Positions 43,252 through 55,657 of a stretch of 64,000 nt of DNA are shown here, piece by piece; the first letter of the stretch is position 1; each line of letters opens with the position of its first letter. Source of the DNA: Fibrobacteria bacterium (lineage in GTDB: Bacteria; Fibrobacterota; Fibrobacteria; UBA11236); the NCBI GenBank assembly GCA_043745805.1, contig JAYTSD010000006.1, forward strand, positions 32,001-96,000, written 5' to 3'. The notes under the pieces were generated by a model. It was not told the DNA's origin, did not search any database, and was given only the letters and a program-made list of their open reading frames with translations. The translations under genes and the position numbers were made by a program.

Positions 43252-44988
43252 TTAGCGTAATAATAACCACAGCTCAATACTTGCTGCGAGTGTCGTTAGC
43301 CCAGCAAGTAATTTCCATACCAGCAAGGGATTGCGTTCGAGTAGAGGACGGAATACCGGCGCATGGACAACTTCTTCCTGTTTTTCCAAATGAAATTGTA
43401 ATTCCGATACCGACTCATATCTTTTTTTAGGATCCGCTTCCGTAGCTTTTTGTAATGCCGCTTCCAACCAAAAAGGGGTTTCGGGACGAAAGCGTGAAGG
43501 CGGAATCCATCGAATAAAACGTGGGGAAGAAAAGGGTTCGATTTCCCCATACGGATATTTGCGGGTTAATAATTCATAAAGGGTAACTCCTAAAGCATAA
43601 ATATCCGACTGTACCGAAGTTCTATCTCCACGAAAAACCTCGGGAGCCATATAGCTTGGGGTTCCCGGGGCTGAGAAAGCTAATCCCTCGCCGGTAATGG
43701 GTTGCAAGCCATCCACTTGAATAATTCCCAAATCCATAATTTTAACTTTGCCATTACGATCGATAAAAATATTGTCGGGTTTAATATCGCGATGCACAAT
43801 ATCCTTGCTATGCAAAACATGTAAACCTTTACAAATTTGCAAACCAATTTGTACTACTTCATCCGCCGAAAAATAATGCCCACGCTTGATACGCTGGCGT
43901 AAAGTTTCGCCTTGATAAAACGGCATTGCATAATATAAACAGGATCGTCGGCCCGAAGTAATAGGTAACACGGGTATGACATATTCACTATAAATACGTT
44001 TGCCTACCCATTCCTCGCGGAGAAATCGATCGATAAACACTTTATCATCGCGAAAACGGGGATGCGGAAATTTGAGCGCCACACTTTCGCCGGTACGGGT
44101 ATCTTCCGCTTGGTAGATGGAGGCCATATAGCCCTCATGCACGGTGCGTAAAATGCGGAAATCATCTAGTATTTGCCCAGGTAACACTGTGGTTGCGAAA
44201 GGTAAATCCGAAGCTTCGCTTTGCAAATCGGCTTCTTGATGTTCTGGAAGGCTTTCAATATGTACGACTTGGGTGGTGATATTATCTTGAGAGCCGAAGC
44301 TAAAGGCGGCATGTACTAATTGATCCGCGGCAGTTTGGGGATCTATTTCTCCTAAGGCAATGGAAAGTAGTTTTTCATCGGGTAGGCATTTGTTTAAACC
44401 ATCTGTGCATAGCACAAAAATATCGCCGATTTTAAGTTCGTCTTGAAAAAAATCAGCATGAATATGACTGTCTAAACCAATTGCACGCGAAACCACATTA
44501 CGCATTTCGGGATGATCCCAAACATGATCTTGAGTTAATAATTTTATTTGTTTATTACGAATTAAATAGATGCGACTATCGCCTACATGCGAGACAAAAT
44601 AACGATGGCCCTTAATGATTAAAGCCGAAAATGTAGTGGCGGCACCCCCGCGACTTTGTTCAGCTTTTTCCGGTTGATAAATACTTTGATTGAGTTGGGT
44701 TAAAATTTGTTCAACGCATTTTTGAATACTCCATGTGTCAGGAGTACTATAATAATCAGCAAGAAAATTTTTTACCGATTTCTCGGCAGCAGCTCTGCCA
44801 CCATGGCCAATACCCACACCATCGGCTACCACAACGGCCACACCCTTTGATTGCAGGGCATCGCCTTCGGGTGTTACGCAACCATAAAAATCTTCATTGC
44901 CTTGTCGACGCCCTTGAGAGGAATGGACACCAAGAGCGACTTTTAATTTTTTCAAACGCGTGCTTTTGTCACTAAGGGTGAACCCCAT
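43252..44988 (-). CDS. Bifunctional PP2C phosphatase / Ser-Thr kinase
   Basis: NED, VADGVG, HVGDSRIY, LCTDG, SQDNIT; then VALK, HRDIKPDN, DLG, GTPSYMAPE, DIYALG; C-terminal TM. Confidence 0.9.
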   Translation of the reverse strand: MGFTLSDKSTRLKKLKVALGVHSSQGRRQGNEDFYGCVTPEGDALQSKGVAVVVADGVGIGHGGRAAAEKSVKNFLADYYSTPDTWSIQKCVEQILTQLNQSIYQPEKAEQSRGGAATTFSALIIKGHRYFVSHVGDSRIYLIRNKQIKLLTQDHVWDHPEMRNVVSRAIGLDSHIHADFFQDELKIGDIFVLCTDGLNKCLPDEKLLSIALGEIDPQTAADQLVHAAFSFGSQDNITTQVVHIESLPEHQEADLQSEASDLPFATTVLPGQILDDFRILRTVHEGYMASIYQAEDTRTGESVALKFPHPRFRDDKVFIDRFLREEWVGKRIYSEYVIPVLPITSGRRSCLYYAMPFYQGETLRQRIKRGHYFSADEVVQIGLQICKGLHVLHSKDIVHRDIKPDNIFIDRNGKVKIMDLGIIQVDGLQPITGEGLAFSAPGTPSYMAPEVFRGDRTSVQSDIYALGVTLYELLTRKYPYGEIEPFSSPRFIRWIPPSRFRPETPFWLEAALQKATEADPKKRYESVSELQFHLEKQEEVVHAPVFRPLLERNPLLVWKLLAGLTTLAASIELWLLLR

Positions 44989-46166
44989 GTCGTGCGCCAG
45001 CGTTTTTTAACACTCATTAAACCAATGAAAGCACAAATTCCCATGCCCGCAAAAATAATAAGTCCCATACGATAATCACCGGTATATTGTTTACAAAATC
45101 CTAATGAAGTGGCTAAATAAAATCCGCCCATGCCACCAGCCATTCCGACCAGCCCAGTAAGTACGCCAATTTCACGACGAAAACGTTGGGGGATTAATTG
45201 AAATACGGCACCATTACCCATGCCAAGGCAAGTCATGCACAAAACAAAGAGTACCACAGAAATCCAAAGTATATGTGGAGCAAACGCAATTGTAAGCAAA
45301 CAAGCTGCTACACATAAATAAAGTGTTTGTAAAGATTTTATTCCACCGATTTTATCCGCTAGGTTACCTCCAAAAGGACGGGACATTGATCCCGCAAAAA
45401 CACAAGCCGCGGTTAAATAACCAGCCGTAACTGGCGAGATACCATATTGACTATTGAAATAAATCACTAAGCTCGAAGCCAATCCCACAAAGCCACCAAA
45501 AGTTACGAGATAGAAGAACATAAACCACCAAGCATCCTGGTCCCGTAAAACAGCTAAGTATTGCGAAAGTTTTTTAGGAGGAGGCGCATCAGGCGCATCT
45601 TTAGCGAGTATGGTAAAAATGATGAAAGTTATAGAGAGCGGAATTAAGGCTATTCCAAAAACGGCATTCCAACCATAATGATTGGCTAATAGCGGTGCAA
45701 ATAAAGCAGAAAATACCGTACCCGAATTTCCCGCTCCCGCAATACCCATTGCCAAACCTTGCGATTCGGGAGGATACCAACGTGAGGCCAGCGGCAAAGC
45801 AACGGCAAAGGCAGTCCCTGCTACACCTAATAAGATTCCCATGAAATACATTTCCTGCAAATTATGCAAATGAAATATCCAAGCCCATAATAAGCCAGCA
45901 ATAACTACAACTTGTGTGAGCATGCCGGTTTTTTTAGCGCCAATTTTATCCACGAAAATTCCTATGAAGAGACGCATAATAGCCCCTGCTAATACGGGGA
46001 CTGCGACCATTAAACCTTTTTGCGAAGGGGATAAGCCTAAATCGCGCGCTATGTGCACGCCTAGAGGGCCGAGTAAAACCCAAACCATAAAACTCATGTC
46101 AAAATAAAGAAATGCAGAAAATAATGTTGCCGGATGGCCCGCTTTCATAAAGCTTTTGATATTCAC
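44952..46166 (-). CDS. narK: NarK/NasA-family MFS nitrate/nitrite transporter
   Basis: LFSAFLYFDMSFMVW, FAVALPLASRWYPP..QG.AMGIAGAGNSG, TFGGFVG, GMGNGAVFQL.PQRF. Confidence 0.9.
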   Translation of the reverse strand: MNIKSFMKAGHPATLFSAFLYFDMSFMVWVLLGPLGVHIARDLGLSPSQKGLMVAVPVLAGAIMRLFIGIFVDKIGAKKTGMLTQVVVIAGLLWAWIFHLHNLQEMYFMGILLGVAGTAFAVALPLASRWYPPESQGLAMGIAGAGNSGTVFSALFAPLLANHYGWNAVFGIALIPLSITFIIFTILAKDAPDAPPPKKLSQYLAVLRDQDAWWFMFFYLVTFGGFVGLASSLVIYFNSQYGISPVTAGYLTAACVFAGSMSRPFGGNLADKIGGIKSLQTLYLCVAACLLTIAFAPHILWISVVLFVLCMTCLGMGNGAVFQLIPQRFRREIGVLTGLVGMAGGMGGFYLATSLGFCKQYTGDYRMGLIIFAGMGICAFIGLMSVKKRWRTTWGSPLVTKARV

Positions 46167-46204
46167 GATTCAACCCCTAAAATTCATTTGTTGCTGTTTG
46201 AGAA

Positions 46205-46220
46205 AGCAAACCTTAGGCCA
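46205..46220 (-). promoter_or_regulatory. Sigma-54 -24/-12 promoter of the narK-kinase operon
   Basis: TGGCCT-AAGGT-TTGCT, about 40 nt upstream of the GTG start. Confidence 0.65.
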
Positions 46221-46429
46221 TTAATTTTTCTTCTGCTTTACAAATGTCTAAATAACCTGAATAAATTGGCTTAAATTGATAATTATCGTTTAAAATTGGC
46301 CATTGTAAAAAATACCATTAGTTCTGGTAGGGTAATTTATTGTCATTTGTTGTTAAACAATAAAAGACAATTGTCGACAATCAAAGTTAATTAAAGACCA
46401 CAAACCCATGATACACGTGGTTTACAGAG

Positions 46430-46445
46430 TGGTACAAAATTTGCG
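46430..46445 (+). promoter_or_regulatory. Sigma-54 -24/-12 promoter of the nirA operon
   Basis: TGGTAC-AAAAT-TTGCG. Confidence 0.65.
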
Positions 46446-46468
46446 TTACCTAATTTTGGTTTTACAAC

Positions 46469-46499
46469 CCAACCGATTCCGGTCTGCCCGGGCTTTTGG
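46469..46499 (+). ncRNA. Conserved 31-nt leader hairpin, copy in nirA 5' UTR (putative cis-regulatory RNA)
   Basis: CCAACCGATTCCGGTCTGCCCGGGCTTTTGG, 28/31 identical to 39085-39115 (-). Confidence 0.55.
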
Positions 46500-46532
46500 A
46501 CGACGACTCAATGCTTATTCAGGAGTACGCCC

Positions 46533-48404
46533 ATGGCAACGGAAAACACAACTCAAACATTTGTTTCGCCAATATCCCAAATGCATGCAAGCACGGCCAA
46601 TCAAGGCTCTCCAGTTATTGCAGGAAAAGATTTTTCGTCTGAACAAAAAGAATATCTCGATGGTTTTTTTAGGGGTTTGCTATCGACATCCCTAAATGTG
46701 AACGGGGTAAATCGCAATTCAACCACTGCCATTACGACTGCTACTATTCCTTATGGTGAAGCCGAAGCCATTGGTTATAAGGCGCAATTGGCTTGGACGG
46801 ATGCAGGTAAAAAATTAAGTAAAGAAGAACAAATAAAATTTGCAGCCAATCCTCTTGATAGCTGGGGAAAGATTCGCGCCTTATCAGTAGAAGGCCAGTT
46901 GCCGCAAGGGCCGGACATTTTCCATTTCAAATATCACGGTCTCTTCAATGTTAGCCCTGCGCAAGAAAGTATGATGTGTCGTATGCGGCTTCCAGGCGGT
47001 GTACTTAAATCCTATCAGCTCGAAGGCATTGCTAATGCTGCCGAAAATTTTGGTGGAGGCTATGCGCATATTACTACGCGCGCAAATTTTCAAATTCGTG
47101 AAATACCCGCAACCGGTATGGAACCTTTGCTTACAACCTTACATGAAGTAGGTATTGTGCCACGGGGATCGGGTGCCGATAATATTCGCAATGTAACCGG
47201 CAATCCCACGGCAGGCATTGATAAGCAAGAGTTTTATGATGTTTTGCCTTTATGCAAAGAATTGCATCATTACATTCTCAATCATCGTGAAATGTACGGT
47301 TTACCGCGCAAGTTCAATGTGGCTTTTGATGGGGGCAATTCCATTGCCGCCTTAGAAGAGACTAATGATATTGGTTTTAAAGCCGTAAAGGTATTCTCGG
47401 GGGCGGGTTCGGGACATGAGTTTGCAACAGGCGTTTATTTTCGCGTCGCGTTAGGCGGCATTACCGGCCACAAAGATTTTGCCCGTGACACAGGTCTTTT
47501 ATTAAAACCGGAAGAATGTTTGCCAGTTACAGTGGCGATGATCAAAGTATTCATTGCCAATGGTGATAGAGGACAACGCGGCAAGGCGCGCTTAAAATAT
47601 GTATTGGATAAATGGGGCTTTGCCAAATTTTTAGAGGAAACACAGAAGTTACTCCCCTTTCCCTTAAATTATTTAGCCGCCGAAAAATGTGAATTTGCTC
47701 CGGCCATTGATAAACTCGCGCATGTAGGCATACATACCCAAAAACAAAAGGGACTTAGCTATATTGGGATTCATACGCCGGTGGGTCGCTTGAGCGTTAA
47801 ACAAATGCGCGACCTCGCAAGCATTGCGCAACAATTTGGTTCGGGAACTATTCGCTTAACGGTTTGGCAGAATTTAATCCTTTCGGACATTTCAAATAGC
47901 CAAGTGCCACAAGCTCTACAGGCATTGGAAGCAGCGGGCTTTGCATATCAACCGAATATGGTGCTTGCAGGCTTAGTCTCTTGCACGGGTGCCGAAGGTT
48001 GCAAGTTTGGTATGGCTGCCACCAAAAGCACCGCAGTGGTTCTGGCGGAATATTTAAATGGTAAGGTGGATTTGGATCAACCTGTGAATATTCATTTAAC
48101 CGGTTGTCCGCATTCTTGCGCACAACATTATATCGGAGATATTGGTCTATTAGCTACTTCTGCGGAAGTGAACGGAGAAAAAGTAGGTGCCTTCCATATT
48201 TATGTGGGCGGCGGTTATGCCGCTGAAAGAGGTATCGCACGACAAATTATGAAAGCGATTCCTATTACCACACTTCCGCAAACTTTAGAATTTGTTTTGA
48301 AAACCTATTTACAAAAACGCAAAGGCTCCGAAAGTTTTGCGGCATTTACTCAACAACTCGAAGAAACAGATTTGCTCACCATGTTCACACTAGCGCAAGC
48401 ATAA
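46533..48404 (+). CDS. nirA: Siroheme/[4Fe-4S] assimilatory nitrite reductase (NirA family)
   Basis: FKYHGLF, HITTRANFQIR, GADNIRNVT, LPRKFN, NDIG, RLTVWQN, SCTGAEGCKFG, HLTGCPHSCAQH. Confidence 0.88.
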   Translation: MATENTTQTFVSPISQMHASTANQGSPVIAGKDFSSEQKEYLDGFFRGLLSTSLNVNGVNRNSTTAITTATIPYGEAEAIGYKAQLAWTDAGKKLSKEEQIKFAANPLDSWGKIRALSVEGQLPQGPDIFHFKYHGLFNVSPAQESMMCRMRLPGGVLKSYQLEGIANAAENFGGGYAHITTRANFQIREIPATGMEPLLTTLHEVGIVPRGSGADNIRNVTGNPTAGIDKQEFYDVLPLCKELHHYILNHREMYGLPRKFNVAFDGGNSIAALEETNDIGFKAVKVFSGAGSGHEFATGVYFRVALGGITGHKDFARDTGLLLKPEECLPVTVAMIKVFIANGDRGQRGKARLKYVLDKWGFAKFLEETQKLLPFPLNYLAAEKCEFAPAIDKLAHVGIHTQKQKGLSYIGIHTPVGRLSVKQMRDLASIAQQFGSGTIRLTVWQNLILSDISNSQVPQALQALEAAGFAYQPNMVLAGLVSCTGAEGCKFGMAATKSTAVVLAEYLNGKVDLDQPVNIHLTGCPHSCAQHYIGDIGLLATSAEVNGEKVGAFHIYVGGGYAAERGIARQIMKAIPITTLPQTLEFVLKTYLQKRKGSESFAAFTQQLEETDLLTMFTLAQA

Positions 48405-48424
48405 ATTTTATTTCAAGGATAGCG

Positions 48425-50317
48425 ATGCAATCACCTATTATTCCGGAATCCGCACCCTTTAATTTAGAACAACGTAGTTGGCTGAATGGATTTTTGGCGG
48501 GTTTACAAAATGTGCAAAACCTCAATGGTAATGCAGGATTTTCCTCACAAGAGAGTAGTATCGGACAGGGTACGAGTACCTCGAATGTTATGCGTCAACC
48601 TTTGCTTATTTTATTTGGTTCCCAAAGTGGAAATACTGAGGCTTTGGCTAATGTTATGGCCGATAAAATCAAAGCGGCCTCCTTTGCCGGTATTGCGGGT
48701 GGTCAAGCCTGGGATATTCGCATATTAGGCATGGAAAAATTCAAAGATATTATTTGGGAAAAAGAAAAAGCCATTTTGTTAATGTCAAGCACTTGGGGTG
48801 ACGGGGATATGCCCGATAATGCCATTGATTTTTGGAATTATATGGGTGGAACCGATTTGCCGAATTTAACCGCCTTACATTTTGCAGTATTAGGCTTGGG
48901 CGATAAAAACTATGCACGCTATTGCCAAGCCGGTAAAGAATGGGATAAGCGCTGGGCCGATATAGGGGCGCAACGCTTATTGCCTCTTACCGAATGCGAT
49001 ACCGATTATGAAGCTACTGCGGATACTTGGATTTTACAAGTTACCCAAGCTTTAGAGCCTTTATATGCGATGGGAATTAATACTGATAAAAAAACTAATA
49101 GTACAGCTACTTCCATTGCTTCGACATCAGCTACGGTATCCTTAAAAGGGGAGTCCGCTAAATCAGAAAGCGCGGAAATAAAGTTCGATAAAAAAAATCC
49201 TTTTCCGGCTCCCTTACTCGAGAATCATCCATTAAATGCCAAAGGTTCGGGTAAAGATACCCGTCACATTGCACTTTCCTTAATGGGTAGTGGATTAGAA
49301 TACAAAGTAGGCGATGCCTTAGGAGTTTGTCCCAATAACTGTTATGACTTAACCGATAAAATAATTATCGCACTCAATTGTATGGGTAATGAAAAGGTTA
49401 CACTAAACTCTGGTGAGTCGCTGACTTTAAGAGCCGCCTTGCTCTCCAAATTAGATTTACAAAAAACCTCCTTACCCTTAATTCATGGTTTAGCTAATTG
49501 CTCAGAAAATTCCTCGGAAAAAAAATCTTTGTCGGAATTATTAGGTTCTCAGGATTCCGAAAAAGCAGCGCAATTTTTACAAGGCAAAGATGTACTAAAT
49601 GTATTACAACTTTTCCCTCACACTAAATTGGATCCACAGTTATTAATTTCGGCTCTTGGCAAACTTGGGCCAAGGCTTTATTCAATTTCTTCTTCGCCCA
49701 AAGAAAATATTGATGAAGTGACTTTGACTATTGGCGTGGTGCGTAATATGGTGGAAAATCGTTTGCGCCGAGGTGTATGCTCTACGTTTTTGGCCGAACG
49801 CTTACCCTTAGGCATGACGGCTCCGGTATTTGTGCATAAATCCACTACTTTTGGTTTGCCAACTGAAAATGGTAAACCCATTATTATGGTGGGACCAGGA
49901 ACAGGCATAGCCCCCTTCCGTGCTTTCTTGCAAGAGAGACGTATCACGGGAGATACGGGTAAAAACTGGTTATTCTTTGGTGATCAAAAACGCAATTATG
50001 ATTTCTTATACGCCGAAGAATGTATTGCTTGGCAAGAAGAAGGTTTTTTAAATGAATTGGATTTGGCTTTCTCGCGCGATCAAGAAGAAAAAATTTATGT
50101 ACAAAGTTTAATGCTGCAAAAGTCCAAACAACTTTGGAATTGGTTAGAAGAGGGGGCTTACTTTTATGTCTGTGGCGATGCCAAGCGCATGGCTAAAGAT
50201 GTCGATCACGCTTTGCAAAGCGTGATTAGCAAAGAGGGCGGATTTTCGGAAGACAAAGCTAAAGAATATTTATCTAAGATGAAAGAACAAAAACGCTATC
50301 AGCGCGATGTTTATTAA
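48425..50317 (+). CDS. Diflavin NADPH reductase (CysJ / sulfite reductase alpha-like)
   Basis: Flavodoxin GSQSGNTE, STWGDGDMPDN; FAD RLYSISSS; NADPH GPGTGIAPFR, CGDAKRMAKDV, RYQRDVY. Confidence 0.9.
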   Translation: MQSPIIPESAPFNLEQRSWLNGFLAGLQNVQNLNGNAGFSSQESSIGQGTSTSNVMRQPLLILFGSQSGNTEALANVMADKIKAASFAGIAGGQAWDIRILGMEKFKDIIWEKEKAILLMSSTWGDGDMPDNAIDFWNYMGGTDLPNLTALHFAVLGLGDKNYARYCQAGKEWDKRWADIGAQRLLPLTECDTDYEATADTWILQVTQALEPLYAMGINTDKKTNSTATSIASTSATVSLKGESAKSESAEIKFDKKNPFPAPLLENHPLNAKGSGKDTRHIALSLMGSGLEYKVGDALGVCPNNCYDLTDKIIIALNCMGNEKVTLNSGESLTLRAALLSKLDLQKTSLPLIHGLANCSENSSEKKSLSELLGSQDSEKAAQFLQGKDVLNVLQLFPHTKLDPQLLISALGKLGPRLYSISSSPKENIDEVTLTIGVVRNMVENRLRRGVCSTFLAERLPLGMTAPVFVHKSTTFGLPTENGKPIIMVGPGTGIAPFRAFLQERRITGDTGKNWLFFGDQKRNYDFLYAEECIAWQEEGFLNELDLAFSRDQEEKIYVQSLMLQKSKQLWNWLEEGAYFYVCGDAKRMAKDVDHALQSVISKEGGFSEDKAKEYLSKMKEQKRYQRDVY

Positions 50318-50320
50318 TTC

Positions 50321-52048
50321 ATGAATGCCAAACCTTTACTTTCCCAGTTTGTTCCCGATGCCGAAGATTTAGTCGGATCGTATTTACAAGAACAAAAAAA
50401 TCTCACTGCTGTGGAACGCTTTTCCATAGCCCATGATAAAGGTTTGGATAAAGATTTAGTACATCCGGCTCAATCCAAATATTATTTGGATTTGTTACCG
50501 TTAGAAAAACCCAAACCCGGTGAGCAATATGCTTTTGAAGTTGATCTCGATCGCTGTTCGGGCTGTAAAGCCTGTGTTACGGCTTGCCATAATTTAAATG
50601 GCTTGGATGAAAATGAAACTTGGCGTTCTGTCGGATTAATTCATAATGTATATGGAAAGCCTCTGCAACAAACCGTAACTACCGCTTGCCATCATTGTAT
50701 TGAACCTGCTTGTGCACATGGCTGTCCGGTTAAGGCTTATGAAAAAGATCCTATTACTGGCATAGTTAAACATTTAGACGATCAATGTATCGGCTGTGAA
50801 TATTGCATTTTAAAATGCCCGTATGATGTACCTCAATATCATGAAGAAAAAGGCATTGTACGTAAATGTGATATGTGTGTTGGTCGCTTGGAAGTAGGCG
50901 AAGCGCCTGCTTGTGTACAGGCTTGCCCCACCAAAGCCATTCGCATTCAAATTGTCAATCAAGCTATTGTGCGTCAACAACCCGAAGCTTATGGAAACCT
51001 TCCTACTGCTCCCGATTCAACCTATACCCATCCGACCACGGTTTATAAATCCACAAGAGTATTTCCCGACAATATGCGCGCAGGCGATGCCTTTGTGGTG
51101 AAGCGCGAGAAGGCGCATTCGCCTTTGGCTTGGATGTTAGTACTTTCGCAAATGGCGGCAGGTCTTTTTGCTGGCCATTTATTATTACTTAAGTTTGCGC
51201 CACAAGTGTTAACTTCTGGGTTAACCTTGGCACTTTCGGGTTTGGGCTTTTTAATTATGGCGGTGGCAATTGTTGTCAGTGTTTTGCATTTGGGTCGCCC
51301 GCTCTATGCCTTTCGGGCCATTATTGGTTTTCGTCGCTCTTGGCTTTCGCGCGAGATTGTGGCTTTTGGATTAGTTTTGACTTTAGCCGGTTTTAACTTG
51401 CTCACCCTCATCTTACTGCAATTCATGCCTCAGTTTTTGTTTCAATTTTCACCCTTCAAGCTATTGCAAATTAAACAAATTTTGGAGTTAACTCGTGTGT
51501 TACTTACCATTGCAGGCGTGCTGGCGGTGTTTACTTCCGTGATGGTTTATTTTGATACGCCCAGAGTTTTATGGAAAACCCGCTTTACCTTTTTACGCTT
51601 TTATGCTACTGCAGGGTTATTAGGGGGAACATTACTAGCTCTGACGGTTTCTCTTTTTCATTTAGGTTTGGAAAATTCCAAAATAATTTTAGCCTCTCCC
51701 GCATTACATGTGGTGATGGGAATGGTTATAGTTTTGCAAATATTCAAACTGATTGGTGAAGCTGGTTTACAAAATCATGCCGATGACGAAAATCATTTGC
51801 CGCTAAAAAAAGCTTTGCACTTGATAAAGAGCGAATTGTCTTTCCATTGGAATGCGCGTCTTTATTGCGGAATTTTCGGTGGCTTATTATTACCTATTTG
51901 TTGGTTATATGGTGCGAATACATTTTCCTTAGTTGTGCAAATAGGAATTTTGACCTTAGCTTTCACATTACTTTTTTGCGGTGAATTTTTAGAACGGTCT
52001 CTCTTTTTTATGACTTGCGTACCTCCGCGTATGCCAGGAGTTGGATAA
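50321..52048 (+). CDS. Fusion of DmsB-like 4x[4Fe-4S] domain and DmsC/NrfD-like membrane anchor
   Basis: [41 protein letters not shown]...PACVQACP; then ~8 TM with HLGRP...RSWLSREI and [10 protein letters not shown]. Confidence 0.88.
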
Positions 52049-54252
52049 TGGACACAGTAAAAACCTCTCTTCTATCCTCGATATTCAGACAGCGAGAAGG
52101 CAAGCTTACGCGCGATTTGGTACGCACACCCGGAAAATTTGGCCTAGGACAAACACCCACCCGCCTGCAACCTACTAGCGTAACGTCTATGGTATGTGGT
52201 TATTGTTCCACCGGCTGCGGTTTAAATATTCATTTAAAAAACAATCAGGCAATCAATTTAACTCCCGATGCGAATTATCCCGTAAACCTAGGTATGGCTT
52301 GCCCCAAAGGCTGGGAGGCTTTGACTCCATTGGTCGCCGACGATAGAGCCTTAACGCCTTTGTTACGTAACGCACAAGGAACTTTAGCGGACGCGACTTG
52401 GGACGATGCCTTAAAAGCCTTTACGTCCAATTTCAAACGCATTATTGCGGAACATGGTCCTGAAGCCGTCGCTTTTTTAAGCACCGGACAAATTCCTACC
52501 GAAGAAATGTTTATGCTCGGTACAATTGCAAAATTCGGCATGGGTTTTATACATGGCGATGCTAATACACGTCAATGCATGGCCACTTCGCATGTGGCTT
52601 ATAAACAAGCCTTTGGTTTTGATGCCCCGCCTTTTTCATATCAAGATTTTGAAGAAAGCGATACCTTGGTTTTTGTGGGTGCTAATCCTTGCATCGCCCA
52701 CCCCATCATGTGGGAGCGAGTCTGCATGAACCCAAATCACCCTAATATTATAGTAGTGGATCCACGCCAAACTGAAACCGCCTTGGCAGCTACGCATCAT
52801 TATGCTTTACAACCGAAATCGGATCTTACCTTGCTTTATGGGTTAGCGCATATTTTGATTCGTAATGATTGGATTGATAAAACTTATATCGCCGATCATG
52901 TGAATGACTTTGATGCTTTCAAAAATCATGTCGCGGAATTTACGCCACAAATGGTCAGTTATAAAACCGGCTTAAGTGAAGAACAAATTTATGAATTTGT
53001 AGATCTCATTCGTTTAAGCAAGCGCGTTTCTTTTTGGTGGACTATGGGCGTGAATCAAAGTCATGAAGGTGTGCGTGCTGCGCAAGCCATTATTAATTTG
53101 GCTTTGATCACGGGGAATATGGGACGGCCTGGCACAGGGGCCAATTCTATTACGGGGCAAGTCAATGCCATGGGTTCGCGTTTGTATAGTAATACCACAT
53201 CATTAGTCGGTGGACATGATTTTTTAAATGCCGAACATCGACAAAAAATTGCCACTCTTATGGATATGGATGTGAATTTAATTCCCCAAAAAAACACTTT
53301 GGCTTATGATCAAATCATAGAGAAGGTTCGCACAGGCGAAATTAAAGGACTGTGGGTTATCGCCACCAATCCCGTGCATTCATGGGTGGATCAAAATAAT
53401 TTGCGTAAAGCCTTTGCTAATCTCGAATTTTTAGCGGTGCAAGATATGTATACCACTAGTGATACAGCGAAATTAGCGCATGTAGTTTTTCCCGCTGCTG
53501 GCTGGGGTGAAAAAGAAGGTTCAGTAATTAATTCGGAACGCCGCATCGGTTTATTTAAAAAGGTGAGCGCGGCTCCCGGACAGGCCTTAGCAGATTTTTA
53601 CATCTTTAAACTTTTGGCAAAATATTGGGGTTGCGATAAACTTTTTGCAAACTATACTAAGCCGGAAGATGCTTTTCAAATGATGAAAAAAATATCCGCG
53701 GCGCAACCTTGCGACATTACCGGTATTGAAGATTATCAGCATATTGATAAACAGGGTGGCATTCAATGGCCTTATCCTTTAGGCAAAGAACCGAAGGAAA
53801 AACAAAGACGACTTTTTGAAAACGGAAAATATTATCATGCCGATGGGAAGGCCAAATTACTTTTCGATCCAATCAAACCCTTACCCGAAGAGGTAACTCC
53901 CGAGTTTCCCTTTGCCTTGCTTACCGGTCGCGCTAGTTCGGCTCAGTGGCATACCAATACGCGCACGGCTAAATCTGCGGTCTTACGAAAACTTTATGTA
54001 CAAAATTGTTATGTGGAAATTCATCCTGAAGATGCCAAAGAATTAGGTGTTAACTCCGGCGATACGGTGAATGTAAGCTCGAAACGCGGCTCGATAGAAG
54101 CCAAGGTTTTTGTGGCCTCTACGATGCAAAGAGGGCAAGTTTATATTCCCATGCATTATGATGGACTCAATCAATTAACTTTTCCTGCTTTTGATGCATA
54201 TTCACGGCAACCCTCGTATAAGCACTGTGCGGTGAGGGTGGATAAGGTTTAA
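52048..54252 (+). CDS. Molybdopterin oxidoreductase, assimilatory nitrate reductase catalytic subunit (NasA/NarB-like), no Tat signal
   Basis: CGYCSTGC...CPKG [4Fe-4S], [56 protein letters not shown] in TAATG overlap. Confidence 0.85.
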
Positions 54253-54297
54253 TCTCAAAAACCTCATACAATAGCCTATTTCAGCTTTAAAATCAGC

Positions 54298-54326
54298 TTG
54301 CTTTTAGGTATAACAAAAGTTATACT
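54298..54326 (+). promoter_or_regulatory. Sigma-70-type promoter with overlapping palindromic TA operator
   Basis: TTGCTT-17 nt-TATACT; GTATAAC-AAAA-GTTATAC at 54308-54325; ATG 7 nt after the -10 element (likely leaderless). Confidence 0.7.
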
Positions 54327-54332
54327 TTTACC

Positions 54333-54569
54333 ATGAAAACGGCAATATCCATTCCTGATAAAATTTACCATAATGCGGACCTTGTTGCCGAGCGTTTAGG
54401 CGTCTCGCGTAGTGAATTATATGTAACAGCTTTACAAGAATTTCTATTGCAACACTCTTCTGATAAAGTGACTGAAAAATTAAATGAAGTTTATCAAGCC
54501 ATTGGGAGCAAACTGGATTCTTCATTAAAAACCATGCAATTTAAATCATTGCCTAGAGAAAAATGGTAA
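54333..54569 (+). CDS. RHH antitoxin (ChpI/MazE-like)
   Basis: MKTAISIPD...AERLGVSRSELY..AL; overlaps the downstream toxin. Confidence 0.85.
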   Translation: MKTAISIPDKIYHNADLVAERLGVSRSELYVTALQEFLLQHSSDKVTEKLNEVYQAIGSKLDSSLKTMQFKSLPREKW

Positions 54570-54913
54570 TTAAGCGCGGTGAAATTTGGTGGGCGGATTT
54601 ACCCGATCCGATTGGATCTGAGCCAGGTTATGCACGACCAGTACTAATTATACAATCTGATGAATTTAATCGTAGCGTCATTGATACCATTATTGTTGCT
54701 GCCTTAACCAGTAATTTAAAACTTGCTCGTGCTCCAGGTAACGTAGAAGTTTCTGCAAAAAAAACCGGATTATCTAAAAACTCAATTATTAATATCTCGC
54801 AACTTTTAACGCTGGATAAAACATTTTTAACGAAAAAAGTTAGAGCCTTAGATAAGGAAAGTTTTGTGCAGGTTGAAGATGGTTTACGTTTGGTATTGGG
54901 ATTAATGTATTAA
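54563..54913 (+). CDS. mazF: PemK/MazF family endoribonuclease toxin
   Basis: RGEIWWADL, GSEPGYARPVLIIQSD.FN, ALTSN, GNV, SQLLTLDK. Confidence 0.9.
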   Translation: MVIKRGEIWWADLPDPIGSEPGYARPVLIIQSDEFNRSVIDTIIVAALTSNLKLARAPGNVEVSAKKTGLSKNSIINISQLLTLDKTFLTKKVRALDKESFVQVEDGLRLVLGLMY

Positions 54914-55657
54914 ACTTGCAGCCTTCCTAGCCACTCCTATATAAGATAACAGTAGCGAGGGTGTAAATTTAAACGTAAAATCCTCCGGTACAATTCCTGT
55001 TCGCAGCATTTCCCAAAAAGCTTTTTTCTGGAAGTCGGGACGTAACCCTAAAATTTCCTCTACCTGCATTTCATTCTGCAAACAATATTTTTTCATTTCC
55101 TTAGGCTTTATAAAGAGAGGAAGTATATGCATATGCTTGGGCGTGTTTTTTACAAACCATTCCAAGCCTTTGATAATAATCAGCCAAGCCAAAAAATTGC
55201 GATTAAAAGTATGAAAGAAAAACAATCCTCGCGGCTTAAGCAAGCGTGCAGCTTCAGCTACAATCAATGTAGGGTATTCCACATGCTCCAAAAAATCCAT
55301 CGCAGATACGAAGTCGAAAGAGGAATCACGATAGGGCAAATGATAGGCATCGGCCTGTTGATAGGTAATATTTATTTCGCTGATTTGTGTATTAGCCAAT
55401 TTCAAAGTGGACAATGAAAAATCACAACCGATAGATTTAATATTTTGTTTAGCCAACTCTCTTGACAAAAAGCCTGCTCCGCAGCCTATGTCCAACACCA
55501 AAGGTGACGAGTTAAAATTTTCGGCTTTAATTTTTTCAATGATCCAGGCCTGTTTTAATTTTCCTTCAGCCCGTAATAAAGCCACGGGATCATTTTGGGC
55601 ATTTAACCAGCGAACGCCAAGCGAATCATAAAAACTATTGTTGATTTTTGCGGACAC
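54902..55657 (-). CDS. UbiG-like SAM O-methyltransferase
   Basis: INNSFY..LG.RW, LDIGCGAGFLS, MDFLEHV, FFHTFNRN, FIKPKE. Confidence 0.82.
   Translation of the reverse strand: MSAKINNSFYDSLGVRWLNAQNDPVALLRAEGKLKQAWIIEKIKAENFNSSPLVLDIGCGAGFLSRELAKQNIKSIGCDFSLSTLKLANTQISEINITYQQADAYHLPYRDSSFDFVSAMDFLEHVEYPTLIVAEAARLLKPRGLFFFHTFNRNFLAWLIIIKGLEWFVKNTPKHMHILPLFIKPKEMKKYCLQNEMQVEEILGLRPDFQKKAFWEMLRTGIVPEDFTFKFTPSLLLSYIGVARKAASLIH

Follow-up and report, generated by a model that had tools for sequence, protein, structure and literature searches.

Textbook assimilatory nitrate reductases are soluble enzymes that draw their electrons from ferredoxin, flavodoxin or NAD(P)H. The catalytic subunits NasA, NasC and NarB, which are fed by ferredoxin/flavodoxin or by NADH modules, are cytoplasmic, lack a twin-arginine (Tat) signal, bind Mo through a Cys, carry an FS0 cysteine motif, and are encoded among nas-type neighbours. 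Electron supply of another kind is found in DmsABC of Escherichia coli and PsrABC of Thermus, where the wiring runs from quinol through four iron-sulfur clusters to FS0 and Mo. In enzymes of the DmsABC type, the B and C subunits are separate polypeptides, and the A and B subunits of DmsABC, PsrABC, TtrABC and ArrABC are Tat-exported and periplasmic. SoeABC of Allochromatium vinosum and Aquifex aeolicus likewise combines a haem-free anchor of the DmsC/NrfD type with a Mo-bisPGD and a 4x[4Fe-4S] subunit, and the hypothesis has been put forward that its peripheral subunits are cytoplasmic with a quinone site on the N-side (PMC8076601). Where Wells et al. (2020; PMC7331816) treat the Nas/Aio/Nap/Fdh clade, its members are described as never occurring with canonical four-cluster or anchor subunits.

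The operon considered here occupies positions 46533-54252 of a 64,000-nt window, the whole stretch of DNA analysed, from a Fibrobacteria bacterium (GCA_043745805.1, contig JAYTSD010000006.1). With moderate confidence, its last two genes are read as encoding a two-protein, membrane-anchored and cytoplasm-facing quinol:nitrate oxidoreductase, with nitrite reduced along a separate path from NADPH through a CysJ-like reductase to NirA. An operon of this kind was noted at the level of annotation for Lacipirellula parvula PX69, in a single sentence of the genome description (Dedysh et al. 2020; PMC6995999) that leaves orientation, donor and assay aside; that wording fits planctomycete loci compared below, such as L055 and L065 of the Lacipirellulaceae, the family identity being taken from the description.

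Organization of the operon

The four genes of the operon lie on one strand, divergent from a transporter gene (Table 1). They are separated by 20 nt between nirA and the CysJ-like gene and by 3 nt between the latter and the fusion gene. The open reading frame of the Mo subunit would run from 52015 if started at a TTG codon, and the ATG adopted as its start shares one base with the TAA stop of the fusion gene (TAATG) and is preceded by AGGAG at 52036-52040. A preliminary description had proposed this gene run, the overlap of start and stop, and a Mo subunit devoid of both a twin-arginine signal and a BFD domain; open reading frames, Pfam, NCBIfam and checks for motifs and leaders bear out each of these points.

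Table 1. Features of the operon and its upstream flank, in window positions.
Feature	Position	Strand	Domain or family matches; remarks
NarK-like MFS nitrate/nitrite transporter	44952-46166	-	MFS_1 (166 bits); TIGR00886; divergent from operon
narK/nirA divergent intergenic region	46167-46532		Candidate operator palindrome
NirA-family sirohaem/[4Fe-4S] reductase, 623 aa	46533-48404	+	NF007126 (805 bits); NIR_SIR; NIR_SIR_ferr
CysJ-like NADPH diflavin reductase, 630 aa	48425-50317	+	Flavodoxin_1; FAD_binding_1; NAD_binding_1; NF004859
4x[4Fe-4S] + DmsC fusion protein, 575 aa	50321-52048	+	Fer4_11; DmsC (PF04976)
Putative nitrate reductase, Mo-bisPGD catalytic subunit of the Nas type, 734 aa	52048-54252	+	Molybdop_Fe4S4; Molybdopterin; Molydop_binding

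The transporter scores slightly below the cut-off of the NarK family model TIGR00886 (295.8 against 311.7 bits), and homologues of 66-71% identity are equally placed in Fibrobacteria loci. Between narK and nirA, a 33-bp imperfect palindrome (46339-46371) with 16-nt arms that are 88% complementary is a candidate operator, while a scan of the region for consensus promoters returned nothing better than chance. The NirA-family protein exceeds the NF007126 cut-off of 523 bits and falls far under those of CysI (127 bits; cut-off 756) and ferredoxin-dependent sulfite reductase (94 bits), and on this basis it is read as an assimilatory nitrite reductase. Its neighbour, the sole FAD_binding_1 protein of the genome, passes NF004859 (486.9 bits; cut-off 432) and scores 578 bits with the cysJ model TIGR01931 (cut-off 668). 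The pair resembles E. coli CysJI, in which an FMN/FAD/NADPH diflavin reductase likewise stands beside a sirohaem-[4Fe-4S] hemoprotein, but there the hemoprotein is CysI and here it belongs to the NirA family and is set in the context of NarK and a nitrate reductase.

The Mo subunit of the operon is the only catalytic Mo-bisPGD enzyme of the genome, the two further PF00384 matches being NuoG-like and ActB-like. MoaA is present above its cut-off, the genome has MqnA/MqnD of the futalosine route to menaquinone, and a search for NrfA gave no match above cut-off.

The molybdenum subunit

The Mo subunit opens with an N-terminal arm (residues 1-47), followed by the FS0 cysteines C50, C53, C57 and C85 and the Mo ligand C177. 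This ligand stands in a C-M-A motif, as in Desulfovibrio desulfuricans NapA, in place of the Sec/Cys-His of formate dehydrogenases, and a second diagnostic stretch, T369-G-Q-x-N-A, corresponds to TGQPNA in NapA and to RGQNNVQG in formate dehydrogenases. Both motifs, along with the four FS0 cysteines and K87, are invariant in 33/33 aligned Mo subunits. These residues indicate an active site of the nitrate reductase type, Nap/Nas-like in character. None of the 33 subunits, the query included, has a twin-arginine motif or hydrophobic leader, and Pfam finds no Fer2_BFD domain in the query. The subunit thus has the features listed above for NasA, NasC and NarB, but has no BFD, NasB-type or ferredoxin-type partner; unlike them, it has an obligate four-cluster/anchor partner, present in all of the best 80 of 453 related loci.

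Family models give a less pointed answer, as the subunit lies below every curated NCBIfam cut-off. Its best match is the broad formate dehydrogenase alpha model TIGR01591 (482 bits; cut-off 666), followed by NasA_Halo NF041323 (441; cut-off 1000), NasC NF047855 (421; cut-off 1100) and two NapA equivalog models (338 and 323; cut-offs 904 and 930). Bit scores against the PDB are nearly equal for an F420-dependent formate dehydrogenase (344, the best) and NapA (322). Identity to proteins encoded on plasmids is 31-34% for Nas-cluster enzymes and 26-28% for FdhF and NapA.

The phylogeny comprises 26 rows, with three Nas, two Nap, two FdhF and one FdnG as references and with NarB and NasC absent. 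The 17 Mo subunits associated with fusion proteins form a single clade (100/100), which is sister, with moderate support (93/81), to the three proteobacterial Nas-cluster enzymes, leaving Nap outside. Nas, Nap and the fusion-associated subunits together are split from FdhF and FdnG (100/99), and an AU test of a group chosen after the first tree rejects a clade of the Mo subunit with FdhF (p = 0.008). Periplasmic NapA was rejected as an identity on three grounds: the missing Tat motif, the failed equivalog models and the position of Nap outside the clade. An FdhF-type formate dehydrogenase alpha subunit was likewise set aside, with C-M and T-G-Q at the diagnostic positions and TIGR01591 below its cut-off.

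The more general proposal that the subunit is a cytoplasmic dehydrogenase of formate, or of some other substrate, that feeds the quinone pool takes its appeal from the leading NCBIfam and PDB scores and from the JGI name of the fusion homologues, 'formate dehydrogenase iron-sulfur subunit'. It is very improbable given the two active-site motifs, the separation from FdhF in the tree and AU test, and the nitrate transporters and nitrite reductases that are regular neighbours of these genes.

The fusion protein

The product of the third gene combines a conserved N-terminal arm (residues ~17-54), a DmsB-type 4x[4Fe-4S] domain (~69-250) and an 8-helix anchor of the DmsC/NrfD type (~267-564) in one polypeptide, where complex iron-sulfur molybdoenzymes of the DmsABC type have separate B and C subunits. 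Pfam assigns Fer4_11 to residues 120-210 and DmsC to residues 268-563 (49.8 bits; cut-off 22.3). Sixteen cysteines make up four cluster motifs (79/82/85/89, 123/126/131/135, 156/159/162/166 and 183/186/198/202), the iron-sulfur domain matches FdnH and PsrB, and both hydropathy and the AlphaFold2 model give eight membrane helices. In Foldseek, the membrane domain has structural matches in ActC (8k9e_C; E = 6.6e-5) and PsrC (2vpw_C; TMt 0.62).

This fusion protein has neither a twin-arginine motif nor a hydrophobic leader, and the Tat motif is absent from all 34 fusions aligned. Loops on the iron-sulfur side of the membrane hold on average 12.3 Lys and Arg residues against 1.06 on the opposite side, with the iron-sulfur side higher in every one of the 34 sequences; by the positive-inside rule, the iron-sulfur domain is thus predicted to lie in the cytoplasm throughout the set.

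A putative quinol site can be traced by alignment. The fusion family aligns to E. coli DmsC in hhalign with a probability of 95.4% (E = 1.7e-8), bringing S320, H323, S340 and E345 opposite S62, H65, S82 and E87, which Table 2 of PMC8076601 gives as the four quinone-site residues of DmsC. Replacement of DmsC His65 stopped quinol oxidation, and Glu87 has a role in quinol coordination according to mutational studies cited in the same article (PMC8076601). Three of the four positions (H323, S340 and E345) do not vary across the 34 fusions, and the fourth, S320, is conserved in at least 90%. Mapped through the DmsC alignment, SoeC His65, Glu87, Ser82 and Ser85 (PMC8076601) match H323, E345, S340 and S343 of the fusion. 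Charged residues invariant in the membrane domain are R344, E345, R415, K476, R513, E555, E558 and R559.

Pairing of the fusion protein with the Mo subunit

Loci were compared for the best 80 of 453 relatives retrieved by a search of genome contigs, drawn from several phyla. In 80/80, the Mo gene lies directly downstream of the fusion gene on the same strand. A model of the two proteins of the present operon as a complex reached an ipSAE of 0.91 (runs 0.92, 0.91 and 0.91; best control 0.00), with contact agreement between runs of at least 83% and partner pLDDT of at least 82. The ipSAE mark was attained by 58/80 solved complexes and 2/110 mismatched pairs in a benchmark whose counts apply only roughly here, since custom alignments were used, and the pass may reflect likeness or memory because similar alpha-beta complexes (FdnGH, PsrAB) have been solved. 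In the modelled interface, Mo residues 83-90, around the FS0 ligand C85, pack against fusion residues 80-88, at the first cluster motif, together with both N-terminal arms.

The company kept by this constant pair is varied. A NirB-type NAD(P)H nitrite reductase with no CysJ is found in 36/80 loci, a NirA-type enzyme with CysJ in 21/80 (NirB also in 2) and a NirA that carries rubredoxin-like, Rieske and FNR domains as fusions in 2/80, while two further loci have CysJ but no NirA-type gene (L003, which starts inside CysJ, and L060, with a FAD_binding_1-only protein). An assimilatory-type sirohaem nitrite reductase is nearby in 61/80 loci; no nitrite reductase is nearby in 18, ten of them under 11 kb and eight with long flanks. 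The CysJ-like genes accompany NirA-type genes only, and across the set the fusion-Mo pair has NAD(P)H nitrite reductases of three kinds beside it. By this pattern of gene neighbourhoods, CysJ is assigned to NirA and not to the Mo subunit.

These distributions bear on a rival in which the whole complex is fed by NAD(P)H, electrons passing from the CysJ-like reductase (NirB in other phyla) to the four-cluster domain and on to Mo, with the DmsC domain serving as a mere tether, perhaps beside NarK. The CysJ-like gene does immediately precede the fusion gene, a Ralstonia nas cluster has a separate NAD(P)/FAD oxidoreductase adjoining its Mo subunit, and NasA-CysJ fusion nitrate reductases described from other bacteria imply that a CysJ-type reductase can feed a Nas domain (PMC4013037). 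This rival is nevertheless quite unlikely: the three NAD(P)H modules that accompany the pair are unrelated and none is nearby in the 18 loci above, CysJ follows NirA-type genes only, and a passive tether would need no 8-helix NrfD fold with four DmsC quinol-site residues, three of them invariant.

A second rival keeps the quinol donor and makes the enzyme mainly respiratory or redox-balancing, its nitrite excreted or passed on and assimilation secondary. Consistent with it are the eight long-flank loci that have no nitrite reductase nearby, the Nap-like energetics of a quinol link, and L. parvula PX69, a carrier of such an operon that is positive for nitrate reduction on API 20NE (PMC6995999). 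It is unlikely, given that the pair shares a compact operon with NirA and CysJ here, opposite a divergent NarK gene, that 61/80 loci have an assimilatory-type sirohaem nitrite reductase nearby, and that the NrfA search of this genome gave no match above cut-off.

The strict pairing, the varied nitrite reductases and the link of CysJ to NirA fit a split from quinol through the fusion and Mo to nitrate, and from NADPH through CysJ and NirA to nitrite. The same split had been put forward in the preliminary description and gains support from comparative genomics (the fusion going with Mo, CysJ with NirA), with the donors themselves inferred; its suggested computational checks came out in the same direction, with the Mo subunit grouping with nitrate reductases (Nas, Nap) away from FdhF, the iron-sulfur domain on the cytoplasmic side and a complex model with passed controls.

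Proposed mechanism and comparison

The electrons for nitrate reduction probably come from the quinone pool of the respiratory chain. Quinol, probably menaquinol, would be oxidised at a DmsC-type site that the 8-helix domain presents towards the cytoplasm, and its electrons would pass through the four [4Fe-4S] clusters of the fusion to the Nas-type subunit with its FS0 and Mo-bisPGD, where nitrate imported by NarK would become nitrite. Nitrite would then be reduced to ammonium by NirA with NADPH electrons delivered by the CysJ-like reductase, much as CysJI works in sulfite reduction; we infer this role of the CysJ-like protein as NADPH-fed donor to NirA, as we do the quinol donor, the direction of electron flow and the enzyme activities. 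The enzyme itself would presumably not pump protons, energy being conserved upstream at complex I.

The module represents a new variety of complex iron-sulfur molybdoenzyme, with a SoeABC-like orientation. It shares the wiring of DmsABC and PsrABC, with Foldseek matches to PsrB, PsrC, FdnH and ActC, but is free of signal peptides and would be inverted in the membrane, its catalytic subunit belongs to another clade, and both partners bear family-specific N-terminal arms. The predicted orientation is that proposed for SoeABC, from which it differs in its catalytic subunit (SoeA there; here, by its best relatives, a member of the Nas/Nap/Fdh clade), in the proposed flow from quinol to substrate rather than from substrate to quinone, in serving nitrogen assimilation rather than sulfur oxidation, and in the union of B and C, which are not fused in SoeABC.

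If correct, this reading would mean that a large number of bacteria, spread broadly over the phylogeny, draw on the respiratory quinone pool to pay for nitrate assimilation. Models of what nitrate use costs in redox and energy terms would then change, because NADH passing through complex I would still build proton-motive force. It would also provide a second natural inverted DmsC-type quinone module, after SoeABC, and shift the criteria by which a genome devoid of Nar and Nap is credited with nitrate respiration. A bolder extension, rather unlikely as a whole, would rank these enzymes with Nar and Nap as a third class of membrane-bound nitrate reductase, cytoplasm-facing, haem-free and NrfD-type, used in assimilation and respiration and the sole nitrate reductase of many Planctomycetota, Verrucomicrobiota, Myxococcota and Fibrobacterota, with part of the large potential drop between menaquinol and nitrate conserved as protons are translocated along a pathway formed by the invariant charged residues of the NrfD-like domain.

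Distribution and annotation

The fusion protein matches 453 genome stretches and upwards of 8000 protein clusters, the latter formed at 90% identity, and the fusion-Mo arrangement is widespread across phyla. The preliminary description had not recognised the scheme as biochemically characterised, and the literature searched yielded no biochemical study of the module; in print the module is mentioned once, in the annotation-level sentence on L. parvula (PMC6995999), and by its wide distribution it is not confined to this genome. Should the proposed reading hold, calls of 'nasA', 'napA' and 'formate dehydrogenase iron-sulfur subunit' in metagenomes would need rereading, the last of these being the label that JGI attaches to homologues of the fusion. 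Among the best 150 representatives of the membrane domain, 54 are fusions and 87 are without Cys motifs, 31 of the latter also being without a start Met.

Operon organization

The genes for a NirA-family sirohaem reductase, a CysJ-like diflavin reductase, the fusion of a four-cluster iron-sulfur domain to a membrane anchor and the molybdenum (Mo) subunit follow one another, with 20 nt between the first two and 3 nt between the next, and the last two sharing a single base (TAATG). This run, read from the sequence alone in the preliminary description, is correct in all points by open reading frames and Pfam/NCBIfam domains, as are the base shared between the Mo-subunit ATG and the fusion stop and, for the Mo subunit, the lack of a Tat signal and of a BFD domain in Pfam/NCBIfam. 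The longest form of the Mo-subunit reading frame begins at TTG 52015, but its homologues begin at the same position as ATG 52048, ahead of which lies an AGGAG. The fusion bears 16 Cys residues arranged as four cluster motifs, along with eight predicted helices.

Features of the operon, its flanks and related loci (window positions unless a contig or locus is named)
Feature	Position	Strand	Characteristics
PP2C-kinase protein, 578 aa	43252-44988	-	PP2C phosphatase domain joined to Ser/Thr kinase domain
NarK-like MFS gene	44952-46166	-	divergent from the four-gene run
Imperfect palindrome, 33 bp	46339-46371		narK-nirA intergenic region
NirA-family sirohaem reductase, 623 aa	46533-48404	+	NF007126, 805 bits (cut-off 523)
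CysJ-like diflavin reductase, 630 aa	48425-50317	+	flavodoxin, FAD_binding_1, NAD_binding_1 (Pfam/NCBIfam)
Fusion, 575 aa	50321-52048	+	four-cluster ferredoxin domain; DmsC PF04976 at residues 268-563
AGGAG	52036-52040		
Mo subunit, 734 aa	52048-54252	+	Fe4S4, Molybdopterin, Molydop_binding
ORF, 78 aa	54333-54569	+	overlaps start of toxin gene
PemK/MazF-family toxin gene	54563-54913	+	PF02452, 99 bits
Methyltransferase	54902-55657	-	UbiG equivalog, 123.8 bits (cut-off 102.95)
Second sirohaem reductase, 766 aa	G000:C37:96691-98991 (= L106:6691-8991)	-	NCBIfam ambiguous, every match below cut-off
Single-protein nitrite reductases, planctomycete, ~1000 aa	L040:4945-7887; L050:4792-7884		NirA-type sirohaem, rubredoxin-like, Rieske, FAD_binding_6, NAD_binding_1
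CysJ-like partner of NirA, ~540 aa	L041:13776-15395		PF04060 'FeS' motif replaces flavodoxin domain
Mo enzyme with neighbouring genes, Cetobacterium somerae plasmid p1	L090:6010-10727		41% identity to fusion-associated Mo subunits

A promoter and terminator scan of 46000-54700 returned 18 and 10 sites against 19.9 and 9.9 expected, none of them usable. The palindrome (ATTGTCATTTGTTGTT / AACAATAAAAGACAAT), followed by TGTCGACAAT, is a candidate operator. The PP2C-kinase gene overlaps the narK 3' end by 37 nt, so that the two are probably co-transcribed, and a verrucomicrobial locus (L074) likewise has a kinase match (30% identity over 559 aa) placed between NarK and NirA; the PP2C-kinase protein may regulate nitrate uptake through phosphorylation. 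Directly downstream of the operon, the 78-aa ORF and the toxin gene look like a type II toxin-antitoxin pair.

Identity of the molybdenum subunit

Scores against the PDB leave the Mo subunit approximately equidistant from two formate dehydrogenases (an F420-formate dehydrogenase at 344 bits and a second one at 321 bits) and Desulfovibrio desulfuricans NapA (322 bits), and it passes no cut-off among the curated NCBIfam models. Its active-site residues are more telling, in that C177-M-A aligns to the C-M-A of NapA, where formate dehydrogenases carry Sec/Cys-His, and T369-G-Q-x-N-A aligns to TGQPNA of NapA, where formate dehydrogenases carry RGQNNVQG. These residues, together with the ligands of the N-terminal [4Fe-4S] cluster (FS0), are invariant in all 33 aligned fusion-associated subunits. 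In PLSDB, the subunit is 31-34% identical to the Mo subunits of classical nirBD-nas clusters (Ralstonia, Sulfitobacter) and 26-28% identical to FdhF and NapA.

A 26-row maximum-likelihood tree combined every second fusion-associated subunit (17 of 33) with references comprising 3 Nas, 2 Nap, 2 FdhF, 1 FdnG and 1 Cetobacterium enzyme, the Nas, Nap and Fdh sequences being plasmid-borne. The fusion-associated subunits form one clade (100/100), sister to Nas (93/81) with Nap outside in this reference set without NarB or NasC, and the three groups are set apart from the formate dehydrogenases (100/99). An AU test rejected a clade with FdhF (p = 0.008), the tested group having been chosen after viewing a quick tree. 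The reading as a formate dehydrogenase is rejected from the active-site residues and the tree, and the Mo subunit is, as judged from its sequence, a nitrate-reductase-type enzyme.

The nearest outgroup to the fusion-associated subunits is the C. somerae plasmid enzyme (L090), which is accompanied by a 135-aa 4Fe-4S dicluster protein, an FAD-dependent oxidoreductase and a TDT-family transporter, and which is possibly a relative that is soluble and fed by NAD(P)H.

Orientation, fold and putative quinol site of the fusion

Neither the 34 fusions nor the 33 Mo subunits contain a twin-arginine motif. When the helix boundaries follow an AlphaFold2 model of the fusion (pLDDT 79.4, pTM 0.78), the loops carry a mean of 12.3 Lys+Arg on the iron-sulfur side compared to 1.06 on the opposite side, a bias common to all 34 sequences. 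The iron-sulfur side is thus predicted to face the cytoplasm, as the preliminary description had it.

A PDB sequence search matched the iron-sulfur domain only, with no match of the membrane domain at E <= 0.001, and placement of the latter therefore required a fold search. Foldseek related the N-terminal domain to FdnH, PsrB and ArrB, and the membrane domain to ActC (E = 6.6e-5) and PsrC; an ESM Atlas search returned the same family only, under generic names. Profile comparison with Escherichia coli DmsC (probability 95.4%, E = 1.7e-8) aligns S320, H323, S340 and E345 of the fusion to Ser62, His65, Ser82 and Glu87, which are precisely the DmsC quinone-site residues that Calisto and Pereira 2021 (PMC8076601) give in their Table 2. 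Passages of that review state that replacement of His65 abolished quinol oxidation and cite mutational studies in which Glu87 was important to quinol coordination. Within the 34-sequence family, H323, S340 and E345 never vary and conservation of S320 reaches at least 90%, and the fusion appears to retain a putative quinol site. As the quinone site adjoins the iron-sulfur subunit, with a cytoplasmic side proposed for SoeC in the same passages (PMC8076601), the orientation of the fusion would put its quinol site on the cytoplasmic side.

Modelled as a complex, the Mo subunit and residues 1-262 of the fusion gave an ipSAE of 0.91 against 0.00 for the best control, with contact agreement of at least 83% between runs and partner pLDDT of at least 82. 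Of 80 solved complexes, 58 came up to that mark, as did 2 of 110 mismatched pairs, counts that are only rough because the model was supplied with our own alignments. In the model, FS0 (around C85) adjoins the fusion's first cluster motif, and the interface contains both family-specific N-terminal arms. Since comparable alpha-beta pairs have already been solved, the score shows likeness and is not proof of binding.

Distribution and partner genes

The fusion family is large, in that at least 8000 candidates were scored, all of which matched, and a genome-contig search matched 453 genome stretches; among the record titles are Fibrobacteria, Planctomycetota, Myxococcota, Verrucomicrobiota and Methylomirabilota. 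Cultivated holders include Adhaeretor mobilis HG15A2 (locus L069), a Gimesia strain, a Sorangium strain and, probably, Lacipirellula parvula PX69. Full-length relatives (E <= 1e-100) occur in 20 of 24 same-family genomes, or in 19 of 23 once the unpublished G021 is set aside; outside the family, they occur in 3 of 7 genomes from the order and 4 of 9 from the class. The cluster is therefore native to this lineage, Fibrobacteria MAGs being the relatives that carry names.

Among the best 80 of the 453 loci, every fusion gene is directly followed by a Mo-subunit homologue (54-68% identity), and 49 loci hold a NarK-like MFS gene.

Nitrite reductase genes beside the fusion in the best 80 of 453 loci
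Neighbour	Loci
NirB-type (Pyr_redox_2, BFD, sirohaem), without CysJ	36
NirA-type with CysJ-like gene	21 (2 also with NirB)
NirA fused to rubredoxin-like, Rieske, FAD and NAD domains	2 (L040, L050)
NirA-like ORF cut by contig end	1 (L051)
CysJ only, locus beginning within CysJ	1 (L003)
NirB with FAD_binding_1-only protein	1 (L060)
No sirohaem reductase seen	18 (10 of them < 11 kb)

Across these loci, the nitrite reductase always comes with its own NAD(P)H module, three kinds of which occur, and the Mo subunit always comes with the fusion. The single-protein design of L040 and L050 is the third way to supply the nitrite reductase with such a module. Some planctomycete loci pair NirA with a CysJ-like protein of the shorter, PF04060-bearing form, as in L041.

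Relation to known systems

The closest architecture to the fusion-Mo module is that of the complex iron-sulfur molybdoenzymes, and its predicted orientation is that proposed for SoeABC, but its catalytic subunit is Nas-type, its B and C parts are fused and electron flow would be reversed. According to Wells et al. 2020 (PMC7331816), canonical four-cluster or anchor subunits accompany no member of the Nas/Aio/Nap/Fdh clade, and a Nas-type nitrate reductase linked to either goes unmentioned in the searched passages of a 2021 NrfD review and of a 2023 MopB survey. The sole mention found, in a search that did not reach supplementary tables, comes from passages of the Lacipirellula parvula PX69 genome paper (Dedysh et al. 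2020; PMC6995999), which describe such a nitrate reductase at the level of annotation, with NarK and an NAD(P)H nitrite reductase nearby, and nitrate reduction on an API 20NE strip. The search found no biochemical description, and the module is a widespread, biochemically uncharacterised, Nas-type variant of a known architecture.

Genome background and proposed electron supply

The assembly (3.95 Mb, 50 contigs, 99% complete) contains three PF00384 matches, namely the Mo subunit, a NuoG-like protein and a QrcB/QrcC-like fusion carrying the Tat-variant domain typical of ActB; it holds no Nar or Nap. The sequencing runs listed comprise four DNA runs from a single sediment-metagenome study, two of them possible sources, and no RNA run. 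MoaA lies above cut-off and a MobA-like gene is present. The futalosine-route genes MqnA/MqnD suggest menaquinone; despite them, the methyltransferase downstream of the operon exceeds the UbiG equivalog cut-off.

The CysJ-like protein of the operon is the only one in the genome, and no NrfA scores above cut-off there. For the second sirohaem reductase, the genome offers no CysJ-like partner, and the genes around it (GCS2, an ATP-grasp protein, GGDEF-EAL and others) give no pointer to sulfur or nitrogen; this enzyme may be the sulfite reductase. The operon NirA is a putative nitrite reductase, and elimination by way of this second enzyme does not separate a nitrite from a sulfite role.

The preliminary description had proposed a quinol-fed, cytoplasm-facing nitrate reductase alongside NADPH-driven nitrite reduction, an interpretation that every available computational test supports, among them phylogeny, topology and the complex model. 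We infer a mechanism in which NarK would import nitrate and quinol would be oxidized at the cytoplasm-side DmsC site of the fusion, two electrons passing through its four clusters and FS0 to Mo, with nitrite released into the cytoplasm; NirA would then reduce nitrite with six electrons delivered from NADPH through the FAD and FMN of CysJ. An NADPH-fed supply to nitrate reduction itself is a live alternative, in favour of which NasA-CysJ fusions are described elsewhere in passages of PMC4013037.

For the quinol-fed route, the menaquinone potential is approximately -74 mV. With the nitrate/nitrite couple at +433 mV, as quoted in a passage of PMC10100899, the quinol-to-nitrate step would be strongly downhill. 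Quinol oxidation and nitrate reduction would exchange their protons on one and the same side of the membrane, making the enzyme itself non-electrogenic unless its NrfD-like domain pumps, and proton-motive force would still be built by NADH oxidation through complex I.
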